Origin: an archaeon
GTDB lineage: Archaea; Nanobdellota; Nanobdellia; Parvarchaeales; Parvarchaeaceae
Assembly: GCA_037443005.1 (NCBI GenBank)
Contig: JBBIPE010000001.1
Location: 1,634 to 65,633 of the forward strand
Reading direction: 5' to 3'
DNA: 64,000 nt
The notes under the pieces: generated by a model
The model's input: only the letters and a program-made list of their open reading frames with translations
Told to the model about the DNA's origin: nothing
Database searches by the model: none
Made by a program: the position numbers and the translations under genes
Shown here: one piece after another, positions 2,001 to 53,784 of the stretch
Layout: each line of letters starts with the position of its first letter
Position numbering within the stretch: position 1 is the first letter of the stretch

Positions 2001-2978
2001 ATGCTGTCTCTTTTTAAACCGGAAATTAGAATGTTTGCTGAGAATTACTCAAATAGTATATCCTCAAAAGTTCTATCTCTCGTAAAATCCGGCAAATCTA
2101 GGATAATATTTAACGGGCCTGCAGGAACTGGCAAGAATTTTTTAGCTGAGGCAATTGCCAATCAGATTGGCGCATCATTTGAAATCATAAATCTCTATGA
2201 GCTTTACGATGATACACAGAGCGTGGGCTCTCTTATCCGAGATAGCATAAAAAAATCAGCAGTCTCGAAATCTCTTTTTCAGTCAAATAGAAAAGTGATA
2301 TATATAGAGGATATGGAAAAGCTACTTTCTGTAGATCCATCAATAGCTGCTTCTCTGAATTCTCCTATTGGTGATTCCATTATAATATTTGAATCGGAAA
2401 GCGGTGATATATTTCGTAGCAAATACAAAAGGTACCTTTCAGGCTATGATATAGTAAAGTTCTACAAAATAAATAGCAGAGTATTAAAGGTTTTTGCCAC
2501 AAAGCTTGCAATATATAATAAATTAGCTATAGACGATTCAATTATTGACAGCATAGTAAGGAATTCAAATGGGAATATATCAAGCATAATAACAGATTTA
2601 AACACAATTGCGATAGCAGGGACTGAATACAGCGAGGCATTCCGCAATTCAGAGGATTCAATATTTGAAAAGCTGAATGCCGTATTCTCTGGCAAAGTAG
2701 AAAATATAGATATCTATTTTTCATCAGACATGGAAGCCAAGAACTTTGAGATATGGCTTGCTGATAAGGCCCCTCAGGTACTTAAAAGAGAGCAGCTTTA
2801 TCATTTTTTTGAGTCTTTATCCTCCGCGGATATAGTTTTAAACAAGATACGGAAACAAAACTGGAGTTTATTGAAGTACACTAGGAACATAATGGCCTAC
2901 AGCTGCTATGCATTTAAAGTTCAATCACCAAAAATAGACTTTTACGCCCCAAGATGGGATCTATACTACTCAAATTGA
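2001..2978 (+). CDS. rfcL: Replication factor C large subunit-like AAA+ protein (short, divergent, P-loop GKN)
   Basis: 3-bp gap after rfcS; AAA+ fold NGPAGTGKNF, Walker B VIYIED; only 325 aa. Confidence 0.55.
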   Translation: MLSLFKPEIRMFAENYSNSISSKVLSLVKSGKSRIIFNGPAGTGKNFLAEAIANQIGASFEIINLYELYDDTQSVGSLIRDSIKKSAVSKSLFQSNRKVIYIEDMEKLLSVDPSIAASLNSPIGDSIIIFESESGDIFRSKYKRYLSGYDIVKFYKINSRVLKVFATKLAIYNKLAIDDSIIDSIVRNSNGNISSIITDLNTIAIAGTEYSEAFRNSEDSIFEKLNAVFSGKVENIDIYFSSDMEAKNFEIWLADKAPQVLKREQLYHFFESLSSADIVLNKIRKQNWSLLKYTRNIMAYSCYAFKVQSPKIDFYAPRWDLYYSN

Positions 2979-3131
2979 TTTTATACTCCTGCTCTCAATT
3001 AGATTAAAAATTACAATTTATTCGATAATACTGATAAACTATATTTTTCAAGCTTTGTAGAAGGAGTCCAAATTAACTAGTATTAATCATGAATTAAAAT
3101 CATTTTTCTCTTTGTTTGAATCATTATTCAA

Positions 3132-3920
3132 TCAATCTTTTTTTATCTTTATATCAAAACAGACTCTCTCAAGATATGGTGCAACTTCTCCCGCATTTAC
3201 AGGCTTTATGTTTATCACTTTAAATCCCTGGTTTAAGCTTTTATTTATTCTTTTTATTATCTCTTCTCTTCCGCTTTCAGCGTCTGTTTTTATAAATGAA
3301 TAAAGGTGTATAGTACATTTTTTATTTGCTGCATAAAGCGCGGAATCAAGAAATTTATAAGCATAAAGCGGAAAATTCATTATTATTCTGTCAAATCCTC
3401 CACCTAACTTTTTCACTATTTTTTTTGAATCACCGCGGTAATAGTTTATGTTGTCTGTTTTGTTAAGTTTTATGTTCTTTTCGAGAAGTTTTATGGCCGT
3501 TTCATTTATATCCATTGCCGTTACATGCTTGCATTTTTTTGCAATTGGTACAGCGAATGGCCCAACTCCACAGAACATATCAAGTACACTCTCTTCTCTT
3601 CCTACTAGATTTGTTACCCTAAGTCTTTCATTTGACATTCTCGGGGAGAAATAGACTTTTTTTACGTCTACATAAAATAACGCTTTGTTCTCCTTATATA
3701 ATGTTAAACTCCCCTTGCCGATAAGTTGCCTTAGTTTCGGGAGTCTTTCCTCTCCGCTTATCATCCCTACTTTTTCGAAAACTCTCTTCACGCTTTTGTT
3801 TTTGGAAAGCAGCTCATTCAACTCTCTTATTTTTTCCTCTTTCTTCAACCTGCCTTCAAACTTGACTATAGCAATATCCCCTATTATATCAAAACCTTTT
3901 TTTATTTTTCCTTTTTCCAT
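3132..3920 (-). CDS. Trm5/Taw2-family (Met-10+ like) class I SAM-dependent tRNA methyltransferase
   Basis: VLDMFCGVGPFAVPIAKK SAM motif; Met-10+ architecture; start trimmed to MEKGKIKK. Confidence 0.7.
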   Translation of the reverse strand: MEKGKIKKGFDIIGDIAIVKFEGRLKKEEKIRELNELLSKNKSVKRVFEKVGMISGEERLPKLRQLIGKGSLTLYKENKALFYVDVKKVYFSPRMSNERLRVTNLVGREESVLDMFCGVGPFAVPIAKKCKHVTAMDINETAIKLLEKNIKLNKTDNINYYRGDSKKIVKKLGGGFDRIIMNFPLYAYKFLDSALYAANKKCTIHLYSFIKTDAESGREEIIKRINKSLNQGFKVINIKPVNAGEVAPYLERVCFDIKIKKD

Positions 3921-14306: not shown

Positions 14307-15350
14307 TTAAGCTCCCCAGAAAACAAATAAACCTATAATGGCTATAAAAATCTCGATTAATGTTAGGAAAAATGAAATCTGCCATTCTTTGTATTTTCCG
14401 GTTCTCAGGAAAATATGTGTGAGAGAGTATATATTTCTACCATAAGATGACTTCAACCTGCCATCCTTCTGTATTAATCCCCAGGAACTTGCATGGAACC
14501 TCTTTCTTGCTTTAAGGAAAAATTCTATAATCCAAGGTATCAAAAGAACTAGGGCGAATACTTGCATGTTACCTATTATTGCAACTGCTGCTACAGCTCC
14601 TCCAATAAGGTATGTAAGGCTGTCTCCAGGTATTATTTTTGCAGGGTATTTACCGTAATACATGTACCCTGCAAGCACTGCGAACATGATGACAGAAAGA
14701 GCAAATCCATTGTAGTTTTGTGTATGGTAAGCCATTATTGAGAAGGCAGCGAAAACCACTAAACCCATTTGAACAGCAATGCCATTCAACCCTTCAAGCA
14801 TGTTGTATGCATTTGAAGCAAATACAACTGCGATAGGTATTAAAAATACTATATATATAGTAGGATTTATTGTGAAGTTTCCTATAAATGGAATATAAAC
14901 CGTGCTTCCTAAGAAAAATACCATAAGTGGTATTGCGCCTATTAGTGTAAGTATTGGCTTCTGCCATTGTCTTATCCCTCCATTAAATAAAGAGTAATTT
15001 TTTGCCATTCTTTTTATATCGGCCATTGAAGTCCTTATTTTTCCGCCGGATATATCATCCACAAACCCTATAAGGGAAATTATTATTATTGAGGATAGAC
15101 CAAGCAGAAGAATTTCCGGGTTAAAATCTGCTTTTATTATATAATTAAAGGCAGCAATCAACGACATTATGCCGCCAAATAATCCTATAATCAAAAGAAA
15201 TCCTCCGCTTGCCGGTAAAATAGGCCGTTTAATCTTGTTTATATCCTGTGCTACAAGGCCTGCCCTTACAAGCAATGGGATTATGAATCTTCCGCTTATC
15301 AAAGTCGCTGCAAATGCTATTACTGCAGAGAGCAATATTTCTAATAACAT
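14307..15350 (-). CDS. UDP-GlcNAc:dolichyl-phosphate GlcNAc-1-P transferase-like (MraY/WecA/GPT family, AglH-like)
   Basis: NAYNMLEGLNGIAVQ motif; about 10 TM helices. Confidence 0.8.
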   Translation of the reverse strand: MLLEILLSAVIAFAATLISGRFIIPLLVRAGLVAQDINKIKRPILPASGGFLLIIGLFGGIMSLIAAFNYIIKADFNPEILLLGLSSIIIISLIGFVDDISGGKIRTSMADIKRMAKNYSLFNGGIRQWQKPILTLIGAIPLMVFFLGSTVYIPFIGNFTINPTIYIVFLIPIAVVFASNAYNMLEGLNGIAVQMGLVVFAAFSIMAYHTQNYNGFALSVIMFAVLAGYMYYGKYPAKIIPGDSLTYLIGGAVAAVAIIGNMQVFALVLLIPWIIEFFLKARKRFHASSWGLIQKDGRLKSSYGRNIYSLTHIFLRTGKYKEWQISFFLTLIEIFIAIIGLFVFWGA

Positions 15351-15421
15351 TTAAATGCTTGCGTTTCAATCTATTTAAGTTTTATATTTGCGCCGTATAT
15401 AACTTGTATTGTGCCTGTTAA

Positions 15422-15494
15422 AGCCCTGTAGTGTAGCGGCCAAGCACGAGGGCCTTTGGAGCCCTAGACACCGGTTCAAATCCGGTCAGGGCTA
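15422..15494 (+). tRNA. tRNA-Gln (anticodon UUG)
   Basis: Manual cloverleaf: A1-U72 acceptor typical of archaeal tRNA-Gln, anticodon loop CTTTGGA, T-arm CCGG-TTCAAAT-CCGG, discriminator A; TATA-like box about 30 nt upstream. Confidence 0.85.
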
Positions 15495-15632
15495 TATTAT
15501 AAATGGGATAATGATATCTTCCAGAAATTGGACTAATTTATTAGTCTAAATCCTAACGGGTCTAGTTTTTAGTAAGTATAATAGGATTTTCAGGAAATTA
15601 TACTAACTAACTCTTTAACTTTTTTAACGGCA

Positions 15633-15697
15633 GGCGTCTTCCCGGCGTCAAAACATTTAAATAAAAAAAAACATAGAATGTGCATGGGAAGACGTCC
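15633..15697 (+). promoter_or_regulatory. Inverted repeat GGCGTCTTCCC / GGGAAGACGTCC bracketing the TATA-like box and 5' end of the pilin gene
   Basis: 10/11-bp inverted repeat separated by 42 nt; encloses TTTAAATAAAAAAAAA and the first ATG. Confidence 0.35.
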
Positions 15698-16868
15698 TAA
15701 GCATGCCATCATGCGCAATCAGATGACTGGTATAAGGAAGTCTCAGTCTGCTTTAGAGTATATGATGACCTATGGCTGGGCTATACTAATAATAGTCATC
15801 GTAGCCGTTATTCTTTACTCTTTTGGGATATTCAATCCCTCATCAAGTATCTCTACAACGATAACAGGATTCTCTGGTTTGGGCAGCGTGACAGCACAGT
15901 GTATGATGAACAGCGGATTGAGAATTGAACTTGGAGATAATCTAGGCTATACAATTAATATAACGGAGATAAATATTACATCCAATGGAGCCATTCAAAT
16001 AATTCATCCAAATAAGATTATTACTCCCCAAGGAACATACATCTTTTATATTCCAAATGTATGTACTGGGGGCGCAGGTTCAAGATTTTCTATTAAATCT
16101 ACAGTATACTACACAGAGCCTACGCAGGTATTAGAAGGGCCTTATACTTCTACAGGGACGATAACCGGAACGGTCTCATCTAATATTATTCCTTATCAGG
16201 GAGTTTCTTCCATTAATTACAGCTCTTATGTATCTTTTTCAAATATTCCAATAAATGCAAATCAGACCTCCTTTACAGTCCTTTTGTGGATTAAAGCGAA
16301 TACCAACAGCGATGGTAATGACTTTGCTTGGGGCACAACTGGTTGTACTGATGGGGTCTATATGGCTGGCGGTACAAATTCCATAGGCTTTGTGGGTCTT
16401 GGCTGGACGCTGACAAATGTAAGCGGTAGTTTTGCATGTCAAAATGTTGTTGGATCAGCTTTCTCACAACAAAGCCACGATCAATACACGTGGGCTTTTT
16501 ATACGATAGATTATAACGCTCCTTCTAAGACATTTAATTTTTATGTGGATGCACAAAATATTGGAACTCAAGTCTTGACAAGCACACAGTTTCCCGAGAA
16601 TGATTTTAGTTTTAGTGAGTTATTCTGGACTGAAGGGGGCTGTACATCACCAGGCTGTTGGTTTAACGGGCAAATATCCGACTTTCAAATTTATAACACT
16701 TCGCTTTCACAGACACAGATAAATGAGATATACCTAAGCCCAACTTTCTCTCCGCTGCCTTCAAACAACCTAGTAGCTTATTACCCATTAAATGGAACGG
16801 CTAAGGATTTTAGTGGACATAACTTAAACGGTAATCCACATGATGTAAATTTTGGAGTTATTAGCTGA
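15678..16868 (+). CDS. Archaeal type IV pilin-like protein (class III signal peptide) with C-terminal LamG/concanavalin-like domain
   Basis: QSALEYMMTYGWAILIIVIV class III signal/TM; LamG-like C-terminal domain; true start may be ATG 15723 (MTGIRKS). Confidence 0.7.
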   Translation: MCMGRRPKHAIMRNQMTGIRKSQSALEYMMTYGWAILIIVIVAVILYSFGIFNPSSSISTTITGFSGLGSVTAQCMMNSGLRIELGDNLGYTINITEINITSNGAIQIIHPNKIITPQGTYIFYIPNVCTGGAGSRFSIKSTVYYTEPTQVLEGPYTSTGTITGTVSSNIIPYQGVSSINYSSYVSFSNIPINANQTSFTVLLWIKANTNSDGNDFAWGTTGCTDGVYMAGGTNSIGFVGLGWTLTNVSGSFACQNVVGSAFSQQSHDQYTWAFYTIDYNAPSKTFNFYVDAQNIGTQVLTSTQFPENDFSFSELFWTEGGCTSPGCWFNGQISDFQIYNTSLSQTQINEIYLSPTFSPLPSNNLVAYYPLNGTAKDFSGHNLNGNPHDVNFGVIS

Positions 16869-16915
16869 TTATTTTATACCATAAATTTGAAATTTTCTCT
16901 AATCTGTCGTCTGAC

Positions 16916-17101
16916 TTAATTGCGTTTTTTTGCTATTCTTCTCAGATATACCCAGTCAAAGAAGTTTCTTATCTTCCTGATAATATAATCTATCCCTAGT
17001 ATATACAAGACGAACAGCGCTATAGATGCTATCAATGGGATATAAATCCAAGGTATAAACAAAGCGCCGTAGTAAAATATCGCAGATGTAATTGCGGTCA
17101 A
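16916..17101 (-). CDS. Small predicted membrane protein
   Basis: 61 aa, two hydrophobic helices; no family recognised. Confidence 0.3.
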   Translation of the reverse strand: MTAITSAIFYYGALFIPWIYIPLIASIALFVLYILGIDYIIRKIRNFFDWVYLRRIAKKRN

Positions 17102-17228
17102 TGCCAGACCTATCTCGACCCGCTAACTTGTGAAAGGGGTATATGATGTCTCATTCTTAAACGGACTCCTGCCTACCCAGATCCCAAAGAAAAGCCTAAT
17201 CCCTGCCTAAGCTGTGGCCCAAGCATGC

Positions 17229-17283
17229 GGGGGTAATGCGGGAGTCATTTGGGAGTAGAGTGGGAGTAATCTGGGAATCATCT
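17229..17283. repeat. Five tandem 11-bp units GGGRGTNNNNN (GGGGGTAATGC, GGGAGTCATTT, GGGAGTAGAGT, GGGAGTAATCT, GGGAATCATCT)
   Basis: Direct inspection; one helical turn periodicity, GC-rich island in AT-rich non-coding DNA. Confidence 0.7.
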
Positions 17284-17414
17284 ACCACAGAATGATTATG
17301 ATACTATTAAGACGCTAAAAAAGATTAAAATGTTAAAATAAATTGACTACTTTAGCCTTTTCTATGTTGTAGTACTCAAGCGGTTACAAGTTATATATTT
17401 TATACCGAAGTTAT

Positions 17415-17446
17415 ATTTATATATAACATCAGTATATAACACTGAT
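17415..17446 (+). promoter_or_regulatory. TATA box plus perfect palindrome ATCAGT-atataac-ACTGAT abutting the ATG of the AbiEii-like gene
   Basis: TTTATATATAAC then ATCAGTATATAACACTGAT immediately before ATG 17447. Confidence 0.5.
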
Positions 17447-18097
17447 ATGACAGCTTTGCCGATAACTAACAGGCTAAGGATAGCCAGACACAGAAAGGTG
17501 GCGGTAGCACAGGATATTCTTGTTGTATCGCTGTATGCACATTTTCCAAATGCGGTTATACACGGTGGCACTGCCCTTTGGAGATGCTACGGTGGAAATA
17601 GGTTCTCGGAGGACATTGATGTTTATCTGGATCCAGATGATAAGAACGCCAATTTTGGTGTGTTTGTTCATGAACTTGAAACACGTGGATTAGAAAAAAT
17701 AAAATTCAAAAAATCAAAGACTTCCATCTTCTCAGCCTTCGCATATGATAGAGAGCATGTTGCTTTCGAGGCCGTATTCAAGCATGTAGTGGGAACGCCT
17801 GTGAAATATGAGATGAGCGATGGGACGTTTATCTTTGTACGCACGCTTACTCCAAAAGAGCTCATGCTTGAAAAGATTGTCACTTATCTTGACAGAAAGA
17901 AAATCAGGGACCTTTATGATATGTATTTTCTATCTAGTATAGCGGATGCGGACGAATCTCTGCGGAGACATATAAATCCACTCACCTCAAGATTTATCAT
18001 GCCAGTCGATACTGATACATTGTCTTCATTAGTACTTACTGGTGCTGTGCCGACCGTGGATGAGATGGTAGGAAGATTGAAATTATGGGCAAAATAG
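17447..18097 (+). CDS. AbiEii/DUF1814-family nucleotidyltransferase (type IV TA toxin-like)
   Basis: GGTALWRCYGGNRFSEDIDV matches AbiEii GGTAL...RFSEDIDF signature; C-terminal RDLYDM. Confidence 0.75.
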   Translation: MTALPITNRLRIARHRKVAVAQDILVVSLYAHFPNAVIHGGTALWRCYGGNRFSEDIDVYLDPDDKNANFGVFVHELETRGLEKIKFKKSKTSIFSAFAYDREHVAFEAVFKHVVGTPVKYEMSDGTFIFVRTLTPKELMLEKIVTYLDRKKIRDLYDMYFLSSIADADESLRRHINPLTSRFIMPVDTDTLSSLVLTGAVPTVDEMVGRLKLWAK

Positions 18098-18660
18098 TAC
18101 ATATCAAAGAACTAAGAGAATTTTTTTCTAGTACGCCGGTTTTTAGCACCAGGGACGTGGAAACTGTCGCAGGCAGTGGCTATAGCAGACTTATGCTTCA
18201 TAATCTCACGAAAAGAGGCGAAATAAAGAGATTAGTGCGAGGTTATTACACCAAACTGGATGACCCGATGATTTCAGTATTCTGTTTCAGACCTGCTTAC
18301 TTGGGTCTTTATACCGCCCTCAGTTTACACAACTTATGGGAGCAGGAAACTAATGTTAATATAATCACATCCAGGAATGTTCGTATTGGTATGAGAAAAA
18401 TACTGGAAAGCAATGTGAATATACGCAGGATTAACAGCAGATACATGTTTGGCTTCGATTTAATCAAGTATGAAAATATATACTTGCCTGTTTCTGATGT
18501 GGAAAAAACTATATTGGATTTCAAGTATTTTGGTCTTAAACTAGACAGAGATATACTGAAGAATGCGGCAGAAAGGATAGATAAAAAGAAACTGGCAGCC
18601 TATTCTGCTAAATTTGATAAGGATACTGCAGAAACTGTTTTTACTTCATTAAAAGCTTAG
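18085..18660 (+). CDS. AbiEi-like wHTH protein (type IV TA antitoxin/regulator-like)
   Basis: N-terminal FSTRDVETVAGSGYSRLMLHNLTKRGEIKRLVRGYY matches AbiEi_4 domain; overlaps upstream gene by 13 nt. Confidence 0.6.
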   Translation: MGKIVHIKELREFFSSTPVFSTRDVETVAGSGYSRLMLHNLTKRGEIKRLVRGYYTKLDDPMISVFCFRPAYLGLYTALSLHNLWEQETNVNIITSRNVRIGMRKILESNVNIRRINSRYMFGFDLIKYENIYLPVSDVEKTILDFKYFGLKLDRDILKNAAERIDKKKLAAYSAKFDKDTAETVFTSLKA

Positions 18661-18919
18661 ACAGAACATATAATACGTATTTATACTTCAAGAATAAGAC
18701 AACTATTCTTTCATATTAAATCAATGATAATCTAAAGACTATGGAAGAATAGTATCAACGGACTTATTGCAAATGCTATATTTAGTACGACCCATACTAG
18801 CTGCAATTTTATGCGATAAAAAAAGAACGCTGTCGCCGAGTATATGACTATAGCTATAGCTCCAAAACCCAATGCCGCACCGGTAATCAATGGATTTGAG
18901 CCAGTATTGAACGAAAGTC

Positions 18920-19285
18920 CTATGCTAATAGGATGAAACCGAAACTACCTATGGTGCCGATTGGCTCCTTTTTATAGTGCTCTATCGAAAACAGATAAAT
19001 TACCATCAATACAGCGATAAACAGCATTATTATGAGTGCGTAGACTGGTTGCAGCTGTAAAAATCCAACTGCCGCGCCGGCTACCACTACAAATTGAAGG
19101 GCCATTAAAACCTTTTGGATGCTTATCACAGCAACTAGGAAAAGCACGAAAGCTCCCAGGAGTATACTAGATTTCTGTAGGATTGAGCCGAAACTAATGA
19201 ATGAGATAGCGTATACCAGCAACAACATTGCAGCTACCGCGGTGTATAGAAGTGCACTGCTTTCTTTCTTCGACCGTTTGACCAT
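18920..19285 (-). CDS. Predicted membrane protein
   Basis: 121 aa with 3-4 TM helices; preferred over overlapping plus-strand ORF. Confidence 0.4.
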   Translation of the reverse strand: MVKRSKKESSALLYTAVAAMLLLVYAISFISFGSILQKSSILLGAFVLFLVAVISIQKVLMALQFVVVAGAAVGFLQLQPVYALIIMLFIAVLMVIYLFSIEHYKKEPIGTIGSFGFILLA

Positions 19286-19401
19286 TGTAAAACTAATATA
19301 CTATACTATTTAAAGAAATTATCCCAAATCGGGGTTACAGACTGCTGCCTTTTCAAGGCGCATGAATTTATCGTTTAGTTGTCATTCAAATTCTTATTGC
19401 T

Positions 19402-19800
19402 CTAGCTTATCTTCTTGAGCATTTCATCAATGTTAGAATTATTTCTATGGTCACCGTGGAACCATAGATCTAAACCGTCATTTTCATGTCTCGGAATTAT
19501 GTGGAGATGAAAATGAAAGACGCTCTGTTGCGCACTTCTGCCGGAAGCATTTAGCAGGTTTACAGCATCAATTCCCAGTGAATTATTGTATATCTTTGTT
19601 ATTTTCTTGGTTACAGCAGCTATCCTTTCGATGGTTTTTGTGTCTATACCGAAAATGTCTTCATAATGCTTTTTTGGTATAACTAATGTATGCCCATCGC
19701 TGACCGGATTCGCATCAAGAAAAGCAATAACAGCGTCATCTTCATATATAATCTTAGCTTCTGCGTTGTGGCTGGCTATCATGCAAAAAATGCATTCCAT
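19402..19800 (-). CDS. HIT-family (Hint-like) nucleotide hydrolase
   Basis: Canonical HFHLHIIPR histidine triad; start trimmed to MECIFC. Confidence 0.8.
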   Translation of the reverse strand: MECIFCMIASHNAEAKIIYEDDAVIAFLDANPVSDGHTLVIPKKHYEDIFGIDTKTIERIAAVTKKITKIYNNSLGIDAVNLLNASGRSAQQSVFHFHLHIIPRHENDGLDLWFHGDHRNNSNIDEMLKKIS

Positions 19801-19893
19801 AATATAAGTGTATGCTAACAATATTTAAAATAATGCCATCTTTTAGTTAACATCATCCAGATATATATAAATGATTATCTCTTTCTATAATTA

Positions 19894-20358
19894 ATGAAAG
19901 GGGAAAATGTTATAGGTTATATAGATAATCTGACTTCTTTCGGTATAATAGCACCGAAAAGAAAAAGCATCGTTTTTACTGACAAAAGGACATTTATACT
20001 TGATGCGAGCAGTATGTCGTCAACTGCGGTGTCTGTCGGGTTTTCTTATGTTTTCGGAGCTTTCGGGAGAAAAGCGGCGAATAAAATCTCAAAGGAGGAC
20101 ATTGAAGAGACAACAAAGAAGTTAGCAGAATCTGATCTTGATTCTTTAATAGCCCAAAAACCTGATAATGTGGTTCTGGGTAATGCCAGCGTAGAATCCG
20201 TAATAATAGACAGAAAACAGATAGTTCTGAAATCTGGTGGGAAGTCCTTCAAATATAAGCTGGCGAATCCAGAGGTCAAGAAAAAGAAGCTTGATACCTA
20301 CCAGAGGTACGTGGGTATATTGACAACGGCATTCGGAAATAAAGTCAAAGCAAAATGA
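19894..20358 (+). CDS. Hypothetical protein
   Basis: 154-aa ORF; no family recognised. Confidence 0.45.
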   Translation: MKGENVIGYIDNLTSFGIIAPKRKSIVFTDKRTFILDASSMSSTAVSVGFSYVFGAFGRKAANKISKEDIEETTKKLAESDLDSLIAQKPDNVVLGNASVESVIIDRKQIVLKSGGKSFKYKLANPEVKKKKLDTYQRYVGILTTAFGNKVKAK

Positions 20359-20531
20359 CTGTGGGATCTCCAGATTCAGTAATTAGAGTCAGGGCCAGTC
20401 CTCTTTGGATTTTCATATCCGCAGTACCATTTTTTGTAGGTACTTTAATAGCGGTTTTGTATACTCTTACTTTGAAGGATGAAAATAAAGCATACTCTCT
20501 TCTGATGTTGATCCCTTTCATCGGCCAATAG
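20355..20531 (+). CDS. Small (58 aa) single-TM membrane protein, 4-bp coupled (ATGA) to upstream ORF
   Basis: Below ORF-track threshold; MTVGSPDSVIRVRASPLWIFISAVPFFVGTLIAVLYTLTL. Confidence 0.3.
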   Translation: MTVGSPDSVIRVRASPLWIFISAVPFFVGTLIAVLYTLTLKDENKAYSLLMLIPFIGQ

Positions 20532-20682
20532 TAACATTCGTTCTTATGTCATCAAAGGACAGATATATCTCCACTATGGCAAGTTTGGTTTTTTTTAGGT
20601 CAGATACTTGAATCTGTAGTGTCCTCACTTATATTATATTTTATCTGAAATCAGCCTGCAGAGCAGAGGAATACTGTGATGT

Positions 20683-21881
20683 CTATTTCTTTCTTTCTTC
20701 CAGTGGCTTTATTTTCCTGAAACTTAGAAAGATAAGGACATCATAAAATAGCTTTATCGAGCCGGATAGAAAGAACGGGAGAGCATACTGAAAAGTCCCT
20801 ATAAAATAACTTGAAATAGCAGGACTTATGCCCTGGGCTATGCTTCTCGGCGTGTTTGTTATACCTGCAGTTGCGGTCCTTTCATTGGGCTTTACTATCG
20901 CCATAGTGTATGATTGCCTTGTGGGCACATCCATCTGTGACAGGCTCTGTCTTAAGAATAGAAAACCAACTGCGTAAAAAAGGGAAGGCGCAAGCGGTAT
21001 TATTATCAGTGCAACATTTGATATCATGTGGGTAAATACCATGGTTTTCAAAAGACCTATTCTTTTCGCGACGTAAGGTGCGAGAAGAATCGATATTGCA
21101 GTTATAATATTAGTTGTAAGGAAAAGCAAGGCCAGAGAATTCAGGTTAAGGCCGTATCTGGAATTGAACCACAGGGTAAGCAGGCTTTGAAGTATGAAAC
21201 CGCCACCGAAGGCATCGATTGAAAACAGCGCTGATAATTTGATTATTGTCTTTCTTGTTTCCCTTGATATTTTGATATTTACCGCTTTTTTCGGAGTCTC
21301 TATGGTTTTGCTTAGCGGCATATAAACTAAGATCAATGCGATTGATATGGCAAAGTAAATATAAAGTGCAATGTGGTATCCAAATAGCGGATTTTTAAAC
21401 AAGGTGGGGACTGCGCTGAACAGCGCACCTACAGCAGCCGCAGAGTAACCCAGGAAGTTGTAAATCCCATATGCCTTTGTCCTTTTTTCTCATCAACTTG
21501 AGTAGCTATGGAGGACTGTTCTATTGCCAGGAAAGGTCCTGTTTCCGTTCCCGTAACGCTTACAGATCCGATGAACGCTGCAAGTATGAAGAGAGCAACA
21601 TCAATATCTGCTACCATTAACAGCGCAGAAACGGCCATAAGTGCTGATAACAATATCAAAAATCTCCTTTTTCCGAAAGAATCCGAAAATTTGCTTATTA
21701 TCAAATTAAATGACACGCTGCCTAAAACTGCAGATGAAAGGACTATACCAATTATTAAGGCAGAATATCCGAGATGCAGCATGTATAACGGAAGGATTAT
21801 GCTCAGAAAACCGAATCCGAAGACCCTCAATGATTTTGCCAGAAAAAGCAGCCTATTATTTTTTGATAACCACTCTAACAT
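20683..21881 (-). pseudogene. MFS transporter split by a frameshift in an A/T homopolymer (two ORFs, 21429-21881 and 20683-21402)
   Basis: N-terminal 150 aa and C-terminal 239 aa halves rejoin across the T6 run at 21483-21488 in another frame (…DEKKRTKAYGIYNFLGYSAAAVGALF…). Confidence 0.6.
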
Positions 21882-22014
21882 TATTTTTTGAATATAGCAT
21901 CCAATTTAAGCCTTAACAAAGTAAATTAGAGATCCCATATCCTGAGCTAAATAGCTTCATCGCATTGTATGATGGAACAAAATAGCCTAGTCTCTTTAAT
22001 TGAAATTTATACTA

Positions 22015-23937
22015 TTATTTGTTTTTAGCGTATATATTGCCAGTGTTTTTTCGTTCTATCTTAAACGGCCTGAACATGTTACCATTCCCTTCGTAGAACT
22101 TTGAAAAGAACTCTACATAAATAAGCCTTGCGCCCTGTATACCTCCTTCAAATAAGGCTATTACAATGTTGAACAGCTGTCCAAACACCAGTATAACAAC
22201 CCCGCCGATTATGAAAGGTATCGAACCGCTTAAACTTGATACAAATATCAAGTTTATCACCTGTGCAAGTATAACGGAAGCCAAAAGTATGCCGACAAGC
22301 CTTGTATATGATAGTATATGGCTTATTACAGAAGGTATCTCCATCAAAGACTGCACACCCTCAGATCTAAGTACCAATACTATCCCTATTATTATTGAGA
22401 TGTAACTACCTACTGCTTCAAGATTTGAAAGTCCTATACTCTCCTTGTGAAGCACGGCCAAACCAACTATCACTATGCCCCATGCTACAAGAAGCCAGCC
22501 TATCCTTCCCACAGCCTTTTTCAGATTTTTGTTGTATATGTGGTTTATAGCACCGAGAACAAAGCCAAAGGAAACCATCCCCACACCTATCCATCCTGAT
22601 ATCAGAAGGAGTGTTGCAACGCTTTTTGTGACGCTGAAAATAGGGGTGTATGGAAGGGCGAATCCGAAATATTCGTTGAATATAATACCCAATGCTATTG
22701 CGATTATCGATCCAGGGATTATAGCTTTCATTATCATCATCAGGCTGTTCTTACTGATTATTGTCCTGACAAATTTCGCAAGTTTTCTGGGTATATGGCT
22801 TTTTTTAGGAGGGTGATTTGTTCTGTGTATAATCCATAAGCTAAGAATAAGAAAAGTCGCACCGTAACCTGCATCTCCCACCATCAGGCCGAAGAATATA
22901 GGAAAGGCTATTCCGAAGAATATTGTAGGGTCTATCTCGCTGCTTTTAGGAATGGAATAAAAGCGTATGAAAAATTCGTATAGCTTGAAGGAAACGGGGT
23001 TTTCCATCTTTGTAGGAGGTTCCTCTTTTGTTTTTATGTTCTCAAGAACGAAGTTTCCATTGCTTATTCGGTCAAGTTCCGCTTCTGCTTCTGTTACTCT
23101 TTTATTCTCTATCCACCCTTCTATTACAACAGTGTAATTTGTTGATCCTACCTTTGGTATAATACTCGCTTTTTTCATTTCTATATCCAGATATTCCTTA
23201 AGTGCTGCAACCATTTTATAATGTGCTTTTGAGATCTTGTCCAGTCTTTCATTTATTTTTCCAAGTTTTTCCAGAGCCTCTTTTACTGTCTTTTTCTCTT
23301 TTTCCTTTATCTCTACAGGTTTTCCGTTTAAATCAGGCACTTTTATAAGGCTTACACCTATTTTCTTTGCGATGGCAGCTATCTTTTCTCTGTCATGTTT
23401 TTCTATCGTTACTATGAATGATTTTGACAACTCCGATAACTCACATTCCACATCGTTCTTTAATATTTCAATGAAAGAATTGTCCTTTTTCTTTGCTATA
23501 ATAAAGGATTCAAGCCGGTTTCCGTTTAGTATTTTTAAATCTTTGTTGAAATCCTCTATCATCTCTATGATAGAGAGTATTGAATCGCTTGCGTTTATCT
23601 CCACGTTTATTTTTTCTTCCTCTTTTTTAATCTCGTTTACTTCATCGTATATCTTTATTTTGTCCGCCTCACGGAAAATTTCATCTATACTGTCTAATTT
23701 TATGTTTCCCGCGCTTTTCTTTATAAGGCTTCCTTCAAGGCTTTTTATTTTCTGTGCGTATTTGTTTATCCTGTCATAATCAAGCTCTTTGTAATCATTT
23801 AATATTTTTTTGCTCTCATTTTCAAGTATTTCTATCTGAAGGAATCCCAATTCTCCGAGTAAAGTAACTACGGCATCATAATACTTTTTTGAGATCAATA
23901 TCCTTATCTTTTCTATTTTACTTGGAAGAAACATCAC
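22015..23937 (-). CDS. atpI: A-type ATP synthase subunit I
   Basis: 640 aa, N-terminal soluble domain plus C-terminal multi-TM domain. Confidence 0.85.
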   Translation of the reverse strand: MMFLPSKIEKIRILISKKYYDAVVTLLGELGFLQIEILENESKKILNDYKELDYDRINKYAQKIKSLEGSLIKKSAGNIKLDSIDEIFREADKIKIYDEVNEIKKEEEKINVEINASDSILSIIEMIEDFNKDLKILNGNRLESFIIAKKKDNSFIEILKNDVECELSELSKSFIVTIEKHDREKIAAIAKKIGVSLIKVPDLNGKPVEIKEKEKKTVKEALEKLGKINERLDKISKAHYKMVAALKEYLDIEMKKASIIPKVGSTNYTVVIEGWIENKRVTEAEAELDRISNGNFVLENIKTKEEPPTKMENPVSFKLYEFFIRFYSIPKSSEIDPTIFFGIAFPIFFGLMVGDAGYGATFLILSLWIIHRTNHPPKKSHIPRKLAKFVRTIISKNSLMMIMKAIIPGSIIAIALGIIFNEYFGFALPYTPIFSVTKSVATLLLISGWIGVGMVSFGFVLGAINHIYNKNLKKAVGRIGWLLVAWGIVIVGLAVLHKESIGLSNLEAVGSYISIIIGIVLVLRSEGVQSLMEIPSVISHILSYTRLVGILLASVILAQVINLIFVSSLSGSIPFIIGGVVILVFGQLFNIVIALFEGGIQGARLIYVEFFSKFYEGNGNMFRPFKIERKNTGNIYAKNK

Positions 23938-24251
23938 AGATCAAAGGCCTCCTTTAGTATTTCATTGAATATCTCAAGCATTTCATCTTTTTCTAGCGGC
24001 TTTATCTTCTCCGCTTTTTTCTTTGCTTCTGCTATCTCAGTCTCTCTTTCATTTAATGCCGCCTTTTCCTCTTTCTCTACTTTATTATTTATAATATCCT
24101 TTGCCTCTTTCTCTGTATCTCTTATCTTTTTCTGGCTTTTATCAAGGCTTTCTTTTATTATCTCTGCAGCTTTGTCTTCGGCCTGTTTTACCTTCTTTTC
24201 CGAATTTTCCTCTAATTCCTTTATCCTTTGCAGAGTTTCTATAGATTCCAT
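23934..24251 (-). CDS. atpH: A-type ATP synthase subunit H (peripheral stalk)
   Basis: 105-aa E/K-rich coiled coil between atpD and atpI. Confidence 0.65.
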   Translation of the reverse strand: MESIETLQRIKELEENSEKKVKQAEDKAAEIIKESLDKSQKKIRDTEKEAKDIINNKVEKEEKAALNERETEIAEAKKKAEKIKPLEKDEMLEIFNEILKEAFDL

Positions 24252-53712: not shown

Positions 53713-53784
53713 AGCCTCCGACGGGTGCTGGCCCCGTGACCTTCTGCTTACAAGGCAGACGCTCTGCCGCTGAGCTACGGAGGC
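53713..53784 (-). tRNA. tRNA-Thr (anticodon UGU) with non-canonical T-loop GCCAGCA
   Basis: Manual cloverleaf: perfect 7-bp acceptor GCCTCCG/CGGAGGC, anticodon loop CTTGTAA, T-stem ACGGG/CCCGT. Confidence 0.65.

Follow-up and report, generated by a model that had tools for sequence, protein, structure and literature searches.

AbiE of Streptococcus agalactiae and Lactococcus lactis, a system described as type IV for which a 2026 preprint proposes type VII, pairs a nucleotidyltransferase toxin (AbiEii) with a winged helix-turn-helix (HTH) antitoxin (AbiEi), and according to Dy et al. (2014) the regulator gene precedes the nucleotidyltransferase gene 'in each case'. Three validated DUF1814 toxin–antitoxin (TA) pairs, RlegTA, SanaTA and SdenTA (Sberro et al. 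2013), are grouped with AbiE in a recent preprint (bioRxiv 10.64898/2026.01.19.700257), in which RlegA is a COG5340 member, SdenTA is a COG2253–COG5340 pair and SanaA is only distantly related to the superfamily. AbiE has also been reported to be enriched in DPANN archaea. Here we analyse an AbiE-like gene pair of an archaeon of the family Parvarchaeaceae (assembly GCA_037443005.1, contig JBBIPE010000001.1, positions 1,634 to 65,633); this whole stretch of 64,000 nucleotides (nt) is referred to below as the window. The pair consists of the following features:

17447–18097, + strand: abiEii-like toxin gene, 216 amino acids (aa), DUF1814 nucleotidyltransferase (Pfam and PADLOC matches)
18085–18660, + strand: abiEi-like antitoxin/repressor gene, 191 aa, winged HTH plus C-terminal domain (Pfam and PADLOC matches)
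18085–18097, + strand: 13-nt overlap ATGGGCAAAATAG, read as W-A-K-stop in the toxin frame and M-G-K-I in the antitoxin frame; predicted translational-coupling junction

The AbiE-type module at this locus is intact and belongs, as an ordinary representative, to a toxin-first archaeal lineage that is widespread. We judge it likely that the pair forms a leaderless, translationally coupled two-gene AbiE TA operon, in which a short toxin is encoded first and expression is repressed by the operon's own antitoxin. The comparative evidence that AbiEi reads a 36-bp dyad at the toxin promoter is good, and it combines the conservation of that dyad with its covariation with one residue of the predicted AbiEi recognition helix.

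Identity of the two proteins

The coordinates of both open reading frames (ORFs) and of their 13-nt overlap match exactly those of a first-pass annotation of the same DNA, which had recognised the products as AbiEii-like and AbiEi-like from two peptide signatures, both of which are present: GGTALWRCYGGNRFSEDIDV at residues 40–59 of the toxin and MGKIVHIKELREF at the start of the antitoxin. Pfam, PADLOC and the predicted folds all agree with this identity. In hidden Markov model searches the toxin matched Pfam AbiEii (PF08843) with an E-value of 3.5e-20 and 73.4 bits (cut-off 22.5), and the N-terminus of the antitoxin matched AbiEi_4 (PF13338) with an E-value of 4.2e-8 and 33.6 bits (cut-off 25), so that both families were recovered above cut-off. 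In addition, 27 PADLOC AbiEii models match the toxin, down to 2.5e-18, and the PADLOC AbiEi model covers the antitoxin over nearly its full length (1.3e-20); NCBIfam gave no model for either protein. On the bicistronic arrangement and the domain identity, the earlier reading of a two-gene module of TA or abortive-infection type is accepted.

Across 25 diverse homologues, the window protein included, the invariant residues of the toxin are G40, G41 and T42, N51 to D56 (N51 R52 F53 S54 E55 D56), D58, K143, R150, D155 and D158, and the catalytic motifs GG, DxD and the C-terminal K and D are intact. Residues such as G40/G41 and D56/D58 correspond, as a match of motif pattern only, to G49/G50, D67/D69 and D192 of S. 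agalactiae AbiEii, a class of residues that is mutationally essential in that protein. S54, within R52-F53-S54-E55-D56-I57-D58, lies two residues before the DxD and by motif occupies the position of T65 (R63-S64-T65) in S. agalactiae AbiEii, the phospho-acceptors described at this place being T65 in AbiEii, S78 in MenT3 and T39 in MenT1. An AlphaFold2 model built from a 25-sequence alignment reached a predicted local distance difference test score (pLDDT) of 94.0, and Foldseek matched it to JHP933 (4O8S, 2.9e-8), MenT4 (6Y56, 7.6e-7) and MenT1 (8AN4, 6.7e-5). By analogy, the toxin is expected to be an active-site-intact nucleotidyltransferase that acts on tRNA 3' ends. An orphan AbiEii homologue of 248 aa (32% identity), without an AbiEi neighbour, was observed at 2501–3247 of locus L171 from an archaeal metagenome-assembled genome, between MCM and SRP54/prefoldin genes.

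The antitoxin is modelled with an N-terminal winged HTH formed by helices 7–16, 22–29 and 34–43 and a wing at 48–56, followed by a C-terminal domain in which the loop W85-E-Q-E-T-N90 is invariant. This loop corresponds to the essential D85-E86-I87 loop of S. agalactiae AbiEi in position only. Single-sequence and profile searches of the Protein Data Bank (PDB) with the antitoxin gave nothing meaningful; the fold search alone matched, its AlphaFold2 model (25-sequence alignment, pLDDT 89.8) retrieving S. agalactiae AbiEi (6Y8Q, 2.4e-9, template modelling (TM) score 0.62) and Rv2827c (1ZEL, 1.9e-4).

From the ORF coordinates, the two genes are adjacent, on the same strand and overlapping, an arrangement from which we infer co-transcription. 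No TATA-like element that could serve as an internal antitoxin promoter was found about 26 nt 5' of 18085, and the antitoxin is probably translated by coupling through the overlap. The sequence of the overlap is conserved because it is dual coding, specifying W-A-K-stop and M-G-K-I in the two frames. A fusion product made by −1 slippage at the GCA-AAA-TAG of the overlap was considered and rejected, many members of the lineage having AAG or other non-slippery variants.

A candidate operator over the toxin promoter

The elements upstream of the toxin gene are the following:

17401–17436, strand not assigned: 36-bp dyad, candidate AbiEi operator; left arm TATACCGAAGTTATAT (17401–17416), spacer TTAT, right arm ATATAACATCAGTATA (17421–17436), 2 mismatches in 16
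17414–17426, + strand: TATA-like core TATTTATATATA, AT-rich, at the dyad centre, about 28 nt 5' of the ATG
17428–17446, strand not assigned: small palindrome ATCAGT-ATATAAC-ACTGAT, with ATCAGT at 17428–17433, ACTGAT at 17441–17446 and a second ATATAAC copy at 17434–17440
17391–17404, + strand: second, upstream TATA-like stretch TTATATATTTTATA, overlapping an extra half-site core AAGTTATAT at 17388–17396; not shared with the close homologues L001, L005 and L008

The 36-bp dyad is the only inverted repeat in the window with 16-nt arms and at most two mismatches, and simulations gave 0–4 long dyads per window. When 76 distinct upstream regions were aligned without reference to symmetry, an ungapped block with a consensus of approximately tAACCaAAcTTATAtatatATATAAgTTtGGTTAa was common to 71 of them, and truncated or displaced copies were present in most of the rest. 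Mirror positions within this block are Watson–Crick complementary in 74% of cells, as against 20–34% when the register is shifted by 1–3, and the mean mutual information is 0.144, compared with a permutation maximum of 0.076. The pair formed by positions 10 and 27 is G:C in 26 distinct sequences, C:G in another 26 and A:T in 6, and double changes also occur at pairs 14/23, 7/30 and 5/32.

Among all columns of both proteins, the best predictor of pair 10/27 is AbiEi residue 35, with 1.32 bits, the runners-up being another AbiEi column with 0.82 bits and the best toxin column with 1.01. Residue 35, an arginine in the window, is the second residue of helix 34–43, which the model shows as the third helix of the winged HTH, the recognition helix. 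Lysine or arginine occupies this position in all 27 of the G:C loci, while the C:G loci have mostly Y or H and the A:T loci mostly L or M; among the other 39 loci, lysine occurs only in L079, whose right half-site retains C. In a neighbour-joining tree computed from both proteins after removal of residues 30–46, and hence without the recognition helix, residue 35 and pair 10/27 each change three times, and they do so in the same lineages. One of these co-switches marks the large K clade, another is the reversal K-to-L/G-to-A in L090, and the third belongs to the window clade (R35, G:C), which is nested among non-K relatives. The distant locus L174 (30% identity), which lies outside this analysis, combines K with a GTTATA...TATAAC dyad.

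The archaeal TATA box is centred about 26–27 nt before the start site. From the dyad centre to the ATG the distance has a mode of 27 nt, falls within 26–29 nt in 33 of the 76 loci and is 28 nt in the window, and the toxin mRNA is probably leaderless, since the TATA-like core at the dyad centre sits at this usual spacing. The closest relatives of the window have no TATA-like element besides the dyad centre. In 28 of 71 loci, mostly from Woese-, Pace- and Nanoarchaeota, a canonical TTTATAA box lies just 5' of the dyad and would place the start site inside it. Because the dyad covers core promoter elements in every configuration, that of the bacterial loci described below included, it occupies a repressor position. 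A leaderless promoter with an operator over its core had already been proposed in the first-pass annotation; the geometry fits that proposal, with the larger dyad as the element concerned.

The dyad is also found outside the archaea. In three of four bacterial loci (L017, L018 and L057, from Saccharibacteria of the candidate phyla radiation (CPR) and from another bacterium), it overlaps the −10 element of a TTGACA-N16/17-TATAAT/TATACT promoter. The dyad therefore travels with the gene pair and not with the archaeal basal promoter, since these bacterial members keep it in a sigma-70 promoter. This suggests transfer between archaea and bacteria, from DPANN to CPR or the reverse, followed by refitting of the promoter. 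In L017, the ATG was observed to lie inside the right arm of the dyad.

In the mechanism that we propose, transcription would start about 27–28 nt downstream of the TATA-like core at the dyad centre, yielding a leaderless toxin mRNA, and translation of the antitoxin would be coupled through the conserved 13-nt overlap. AbiEi would bind the half-sites ACCGAAGTTATA and TATAACATCAGT by its recognition helix, with R35 reading the G of pair 10/27, and the bound protein would occlude the TATA box and the site of transcription factor B, thus repressing the operon; binding and repression are proposed because the dyad is conserved and because protein and DNA covary. By homology only, the toxin would modify tRNA 3' ends and so block translation, in the manner of MenT and AbiEii, and the C-terminal domain of AbiEi would neutralise it, probably through insertion of the W85–N90 loop and induced auto-phosphorylation of S54. 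Toxicity and neutralisation are predicted for the window pair by analogy with these systems, and repression by AbiEi, like any antiviral role, is suggested by homology and comparative patterns.

Several observations weigh against parts of this model. First, the right arm in the window has two mismatches, one more than in its relatives. Second, the covariation at residue 35 is partly confounded by phylogeny and comprises three independent switches only. Third, in the 28 of 71 loci with an additional upstream TATA box, that box could be the real promoter and would give a leader of about 22 nt. Finally, it is uncertain that the module serves in defence: of 32 coliphages, S. agalactiae AbiE protected against none (bioRxiv 10.64898/2026.01.19.700257), and the genes around the pair in the window are not defence genes but encode small membrane proteins, a HIT protein and a Laminin_G_3 protein that looks pilin-like.

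Two other accounts of the promoter region were weighed. In the first, the AbiEi operator would be the small perfect palindrome at 17428–17446, located between the TATA box and the start site, as the first-pass annotation had it. The part of that claim which stands is descriptive: the palindrome exists, is perfect in its 6+7+6 structure, abuts the ATG at 17447 and is directly preceded by TTTATATATAAC. It also holds a second copy of the ATATAAC half-site core and is so placed that an archaeal repressor bound there could prevent recruitment of the polymerase. Against its being the operator, however, it is missing from L001, L005 and L008 (67–74% identity), in which the promoter ACCGAAGTTATATTTATATATAACATCGGT is nearly the same as in the window and the bases that separate the ATG from the conserved right arm show no relation to those of the window. 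Perfect inverted repeats of this class (6-nt arms, spacer of at most 10 nt) occur in the window at the chance rate, with 275 found against 283 ± 21 in Markov simulations. The palindrome is thus specific to the window, its ATCAGT being the distal right end of the 36-bp dyad, and the element that is conserved and co-varies throughout the family is the larger dyad upstream of it. We regard this account as improbable. As a further observation on this region, two direct copies of the half-site core AAGTTATAT (17388–17396 and 17408–17416) and two of its complement ATATAAC (17421–17427 and 17434–17440) are present. The outer copies are specific to the window, together with ACTGAT they form the small palindrome, and they may represent a local duplication or a secondary binding site.

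In the second account, which we hold to be just as unlikely, the dyad would be a symmetric basal promoter, that is, a TATA box flanked by two B recognition elements (BRE-TATA-BRE'), or else a hairpin of RNA or DNA, and the operon would not be under AbiEi control. The dyad centre is indeed AT-rich and TATA-like, the left arm stands at the location of a BRE, and palindromes are common in AT-rich DNA, as the simulated windows illustrate. No conserved divergent gene accompanies the dyad, however, the neighbourhoods differing among loci, and the outer ACC/GGT positions and the right arm are conserved although they lie outside any basal element. Retention of the dyad in bacterial members with a sigma-70 promoter, and the fact that pair 10/27 tracks the recognition-helix residue better than any other column of either protein, further argue for AbiEi as the reader of the dyad. 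An RNA hairpin is unlikely because, with a start 26–28 nt downstream of the dyad-centre TATA, the dyad would lie 5' of the transcript.

Gene order, distribution and genomic context

To place the pair among its relatives, one genome per GTDB species was scanned by pattern, which gave 513 stretches encoding relatives; the best 80 of these species genomes, together with 10 metagenome loci, made up the survey. The best 80 comprise 47 DPANN (Woese-, Aenigm-, Nano-, Pace- and Parvarchaeota), 9 Nitrososphaerota, 4 Hadarchaeota, 4 Methanosarcinales, 2 Bathyarchaeia, 1 Thermoproteota, 9 unclassified archaea, 3 Saccharibacteria and 1 other bacterium. By an automatic rule, AbiEi was found directly downstream of the toxin in 88 of 91 loci, the three exceptions being a contig end (L019) and ORF-calling artefacts (L027 and L070), so that the surveyed loci are toxin-first wherever downstream DNA exists. 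Of 81 distinct junctions, 42 show the commonest form, a 13-nt overlap ATGGGnAArATAr that is read as W-A-K-stop and M-G-K-I; the overlap is 22 nt in 13 others, and almost every remaining junction overlaps or abuts within −2 to +4 nt. The closest homologues, with 67–74% identity and from acid-mine-type metagenomes, are all toxin-first with the same 13-nt overlap, and the outliers L173 and L174, at about 30% identity, are toxin-first too. In a set of 1.84 billion 50%-identity representatives, the short lineage counts 19 clusters at E ≤ 1e-30 and 126 at E ≤ 1e-10. No match to the window toxin was obtained by tblastn against the PLSDB plasmids, and no relative of the toxin-first subfamily was found among the IMG/VR viral contigs.

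On Rhizobium and Halococcus plasmids, the annotation puts the antitoxin before the long AbiEii gene; on an Enterobacter plasmid, the long AbiEii gene is overlapped by an upstream gene whose only annotation is 'hypothetical'. On two unrelated contigs, L034 (3001–3642 and 5102–6543) and L174 (703–1940 and 2407–3350), a toxin-first short pair stands beside a canonical pair in which AbiEi precedes a long AbiEii, and because both pairs are adjacent in these loci, the toxin-first and antitoxin-first lineages coexist. Two AbiE lineages exist, and gene order is fixed within each. Judged by the antitoxin-first order given by Dy et al. (2014), the window pair departs from it, as the toxin leads; gene order plays no part in the PADLOC or Pfam definition of the family. 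In the preprint from the Blower, Genevaux and Fineran groups (bioRxiv 10.64898/2026.01.19.700257), RlegA is 'encoded downstream from' the DUF1814 toxin RlegT, and on this account toxin-first order is not new for the superfamily. Our literature search found no paper describing a toxin-first AbiE order for archaea and none dealing explicitly with reversed AbiE order. The first-pass annotation had called the architecture atypical, while allowing that a common and already described archaeal arrangement would speak against this; the first half of that proviso applies, toxin-first order being common among archaeal pairs and the rule of the subfamily, and RlegTA offers a bacterial precedent.

No member of the toxin-first lineage appears to have been characterised so far. 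It is conceivable, and we advance it tentatively, that the short toxin-first lineage is a separate, DPANN-centred AbiE branch with its operator placed on the TATA box, in which specificity has diversified together with one residue of the AbiEi recognition helix, giving orthogonal self-repressing circuits. If this were so, several AbiE copies could coexist without cross-talk, as would concern L034 and L174 with their two adjacent pairs each, and the lineage would offer a naturally readable rule of winged-helix recognition, along with a set of mutually orthogonal repressor–operator pairs from archaea.

The A-type ATPase B subunit of the host is 93% identical to proteins of Ca. Parvarchaeum, which marks the host as a Parvarchaeum-like DPANN archaeon; a Thermoplasmatales host, entertained in view of the thermopsin gene near the pair in L003, is rejected on this ground. 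In the window, which is chromosomal (ATPase and Cdc48 genes are present), a tRNA-Gln gene lies at 15422–15494, about 2 kb from the pair and upstream of it, as first annotated. Between the two stands a gene for a 396-aa Laminin_G_3-domain protein (15678–16868) whose N-terminus looks pilin-like by eye; a Laminin_G_3 protein of about 390 aa was also observed near the AbiE pair in L001 (7786–8651) and L002, on other sides and at other distances than in the window. The 345-nt spacer before the toxin promoter contains, at 17224–17278, four overlapping G-rich units with an 11-nt period (CATGCGGGGGTAATGCGGGAGT and similar, each with GGGAGT), and such units are absent upstream of the toxin in L001. The possibility of a genomic island was rejected, as no att-like repeat, integrase or composition shift marks one, and neither a direct repeat of the tRNA-Gln 3' end nor any other att-like repeat was found within 15300–24000. 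Further along, two ORFs of 239 and 150 aa on the − strand (20683–21402 and 21429–21881, 26 nt apart) encode hydrophobic, membrane-protein-like products and by eye resemble a single transporter gene that a frameshift or stop has divided in two, and a third tRNA was reported by Rfam at 53713–53784 on the − strand (57.5 bits) and not by ARAGORN.

Close relatives of the pair have unrelated neighbourhoods, several of them adjoining HepT/MNT pairs (HEPN toxin and nucleotidyltransferase antitoxin). In L005 (424–1370) and L008 (1541–3361) such pairs lie 1–3 kb from the AbiE pair and look like small TA clusters, of which the window has none; a thermopsin gene neighbours the pair in L003. Synteny by way of the HIT gene was uninformative, a metagenome scan giving only relatives of at most 61% identity. 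We consider it highly improbable that the pair is instead a domesticated regulator and nucleotidyltransferase with a non-toxic role such as RNA or tRNA end modification, a view favoured by the orphan relative L171, by the lack of hits on viral contigs and plasmids and by the housekeeping or membrane genes around the window pair, but opposed by the strict two-gene linkage with overlap, the patchy distribution across phyla and domains, the different neighbourhoods and adjacent HepT/MNT pairs in close relatives, and the invariance in the toxin of all toxicity residues of characterised AbiEii and MenT. A mobile TA module fits because the linkage is strict, the spread patchy, the neighbourhoods shifting and HepT/MNT pairs adjacent.

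The apparently odd defence module of the window thus turns out to be typical of an AbiE lineage common in archaea, and the sequence taken as its likely operator is corrected. A dyad centred on the TATA box, together with covariation between one residue and one base, provides a directly testable model of autoregulation for archaeal modules and possibly a small natural set of orthogonal repressor–operator pairs, while the basic picture of AbiE biology is unchanged.

Comparison with known systems

With AbiE of S. agalactiae and L. lactis, the window pair shares a DUF1814 toxin with GG, R-x-S/T-x-D-x-D, K and D motifs, a COG5340 winged HTH antitoxin, overlapping bicistronic genes and inverted repeats in the promoter, which are bound by AbiEi in AbiE and form a candidate dyad in the window. 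The two differ in gene order and overlap (antitoxin first with 4 nt in AbiE, toxin first with 13 nt in the window) and in the promoter, AbiE having a sigma-70 promoter with a 26-nt leader and the two repeats IR1 and IR2, whereas the window has a single dyad on an archaeal TATA-like core and an apparently leaderless transcript. Moreover, the window toxin, with its 216 aa, is shorter than that of AbiE, and the likeness is detectable at the level of profile and fold only. RlegTA, compared by description only, shares the toxin-first order of the window; RlegTA, SanaTA and SdenTA are bacterial (Rhizobium and Shewanella), and their description mentions no TATA-centred dyad.

In the MenAT systems of Mycobacterium tuberculosis, especially MenA4–MenT4 (Rv2827c–Rv2826c) and MenAT1, both the toxin and the antitoxin folds match the window pair, and the Ser/Thr phospho-acceptor two residues before the DxD is shared. 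The antitoxin, by contrast, is upstream in Rv2827c–Rv2826c as named, Rv2827c is larger (293 aa), and the tRNA-modifying activity of MenAT is documented, that of the window toxin predicted. Of the solved structures, that of JHP933 from Helicobacter pylori (4O8S, 4OK0), a putative nucleotidyltransferase according to its deposition, is closest to the toxin (profile 1e-8, fold 2.9e-8, TM score up to 0.67) and shares the NRFSEDxD motif. PygAT (PYCH_15320/15330), from the PYG1 island of Pyrococcus yayanosii, was the only functionally discussed archaeal AbiE pair in our literature search. Like the window pair, which is about 2 kb from such a gene, it lies beside a tRNA-Gln, but it has the canonical order, AbiEi (208 aa) followed by AbiEii (253 aa), and belongs to an island with an integrase and att repeats.

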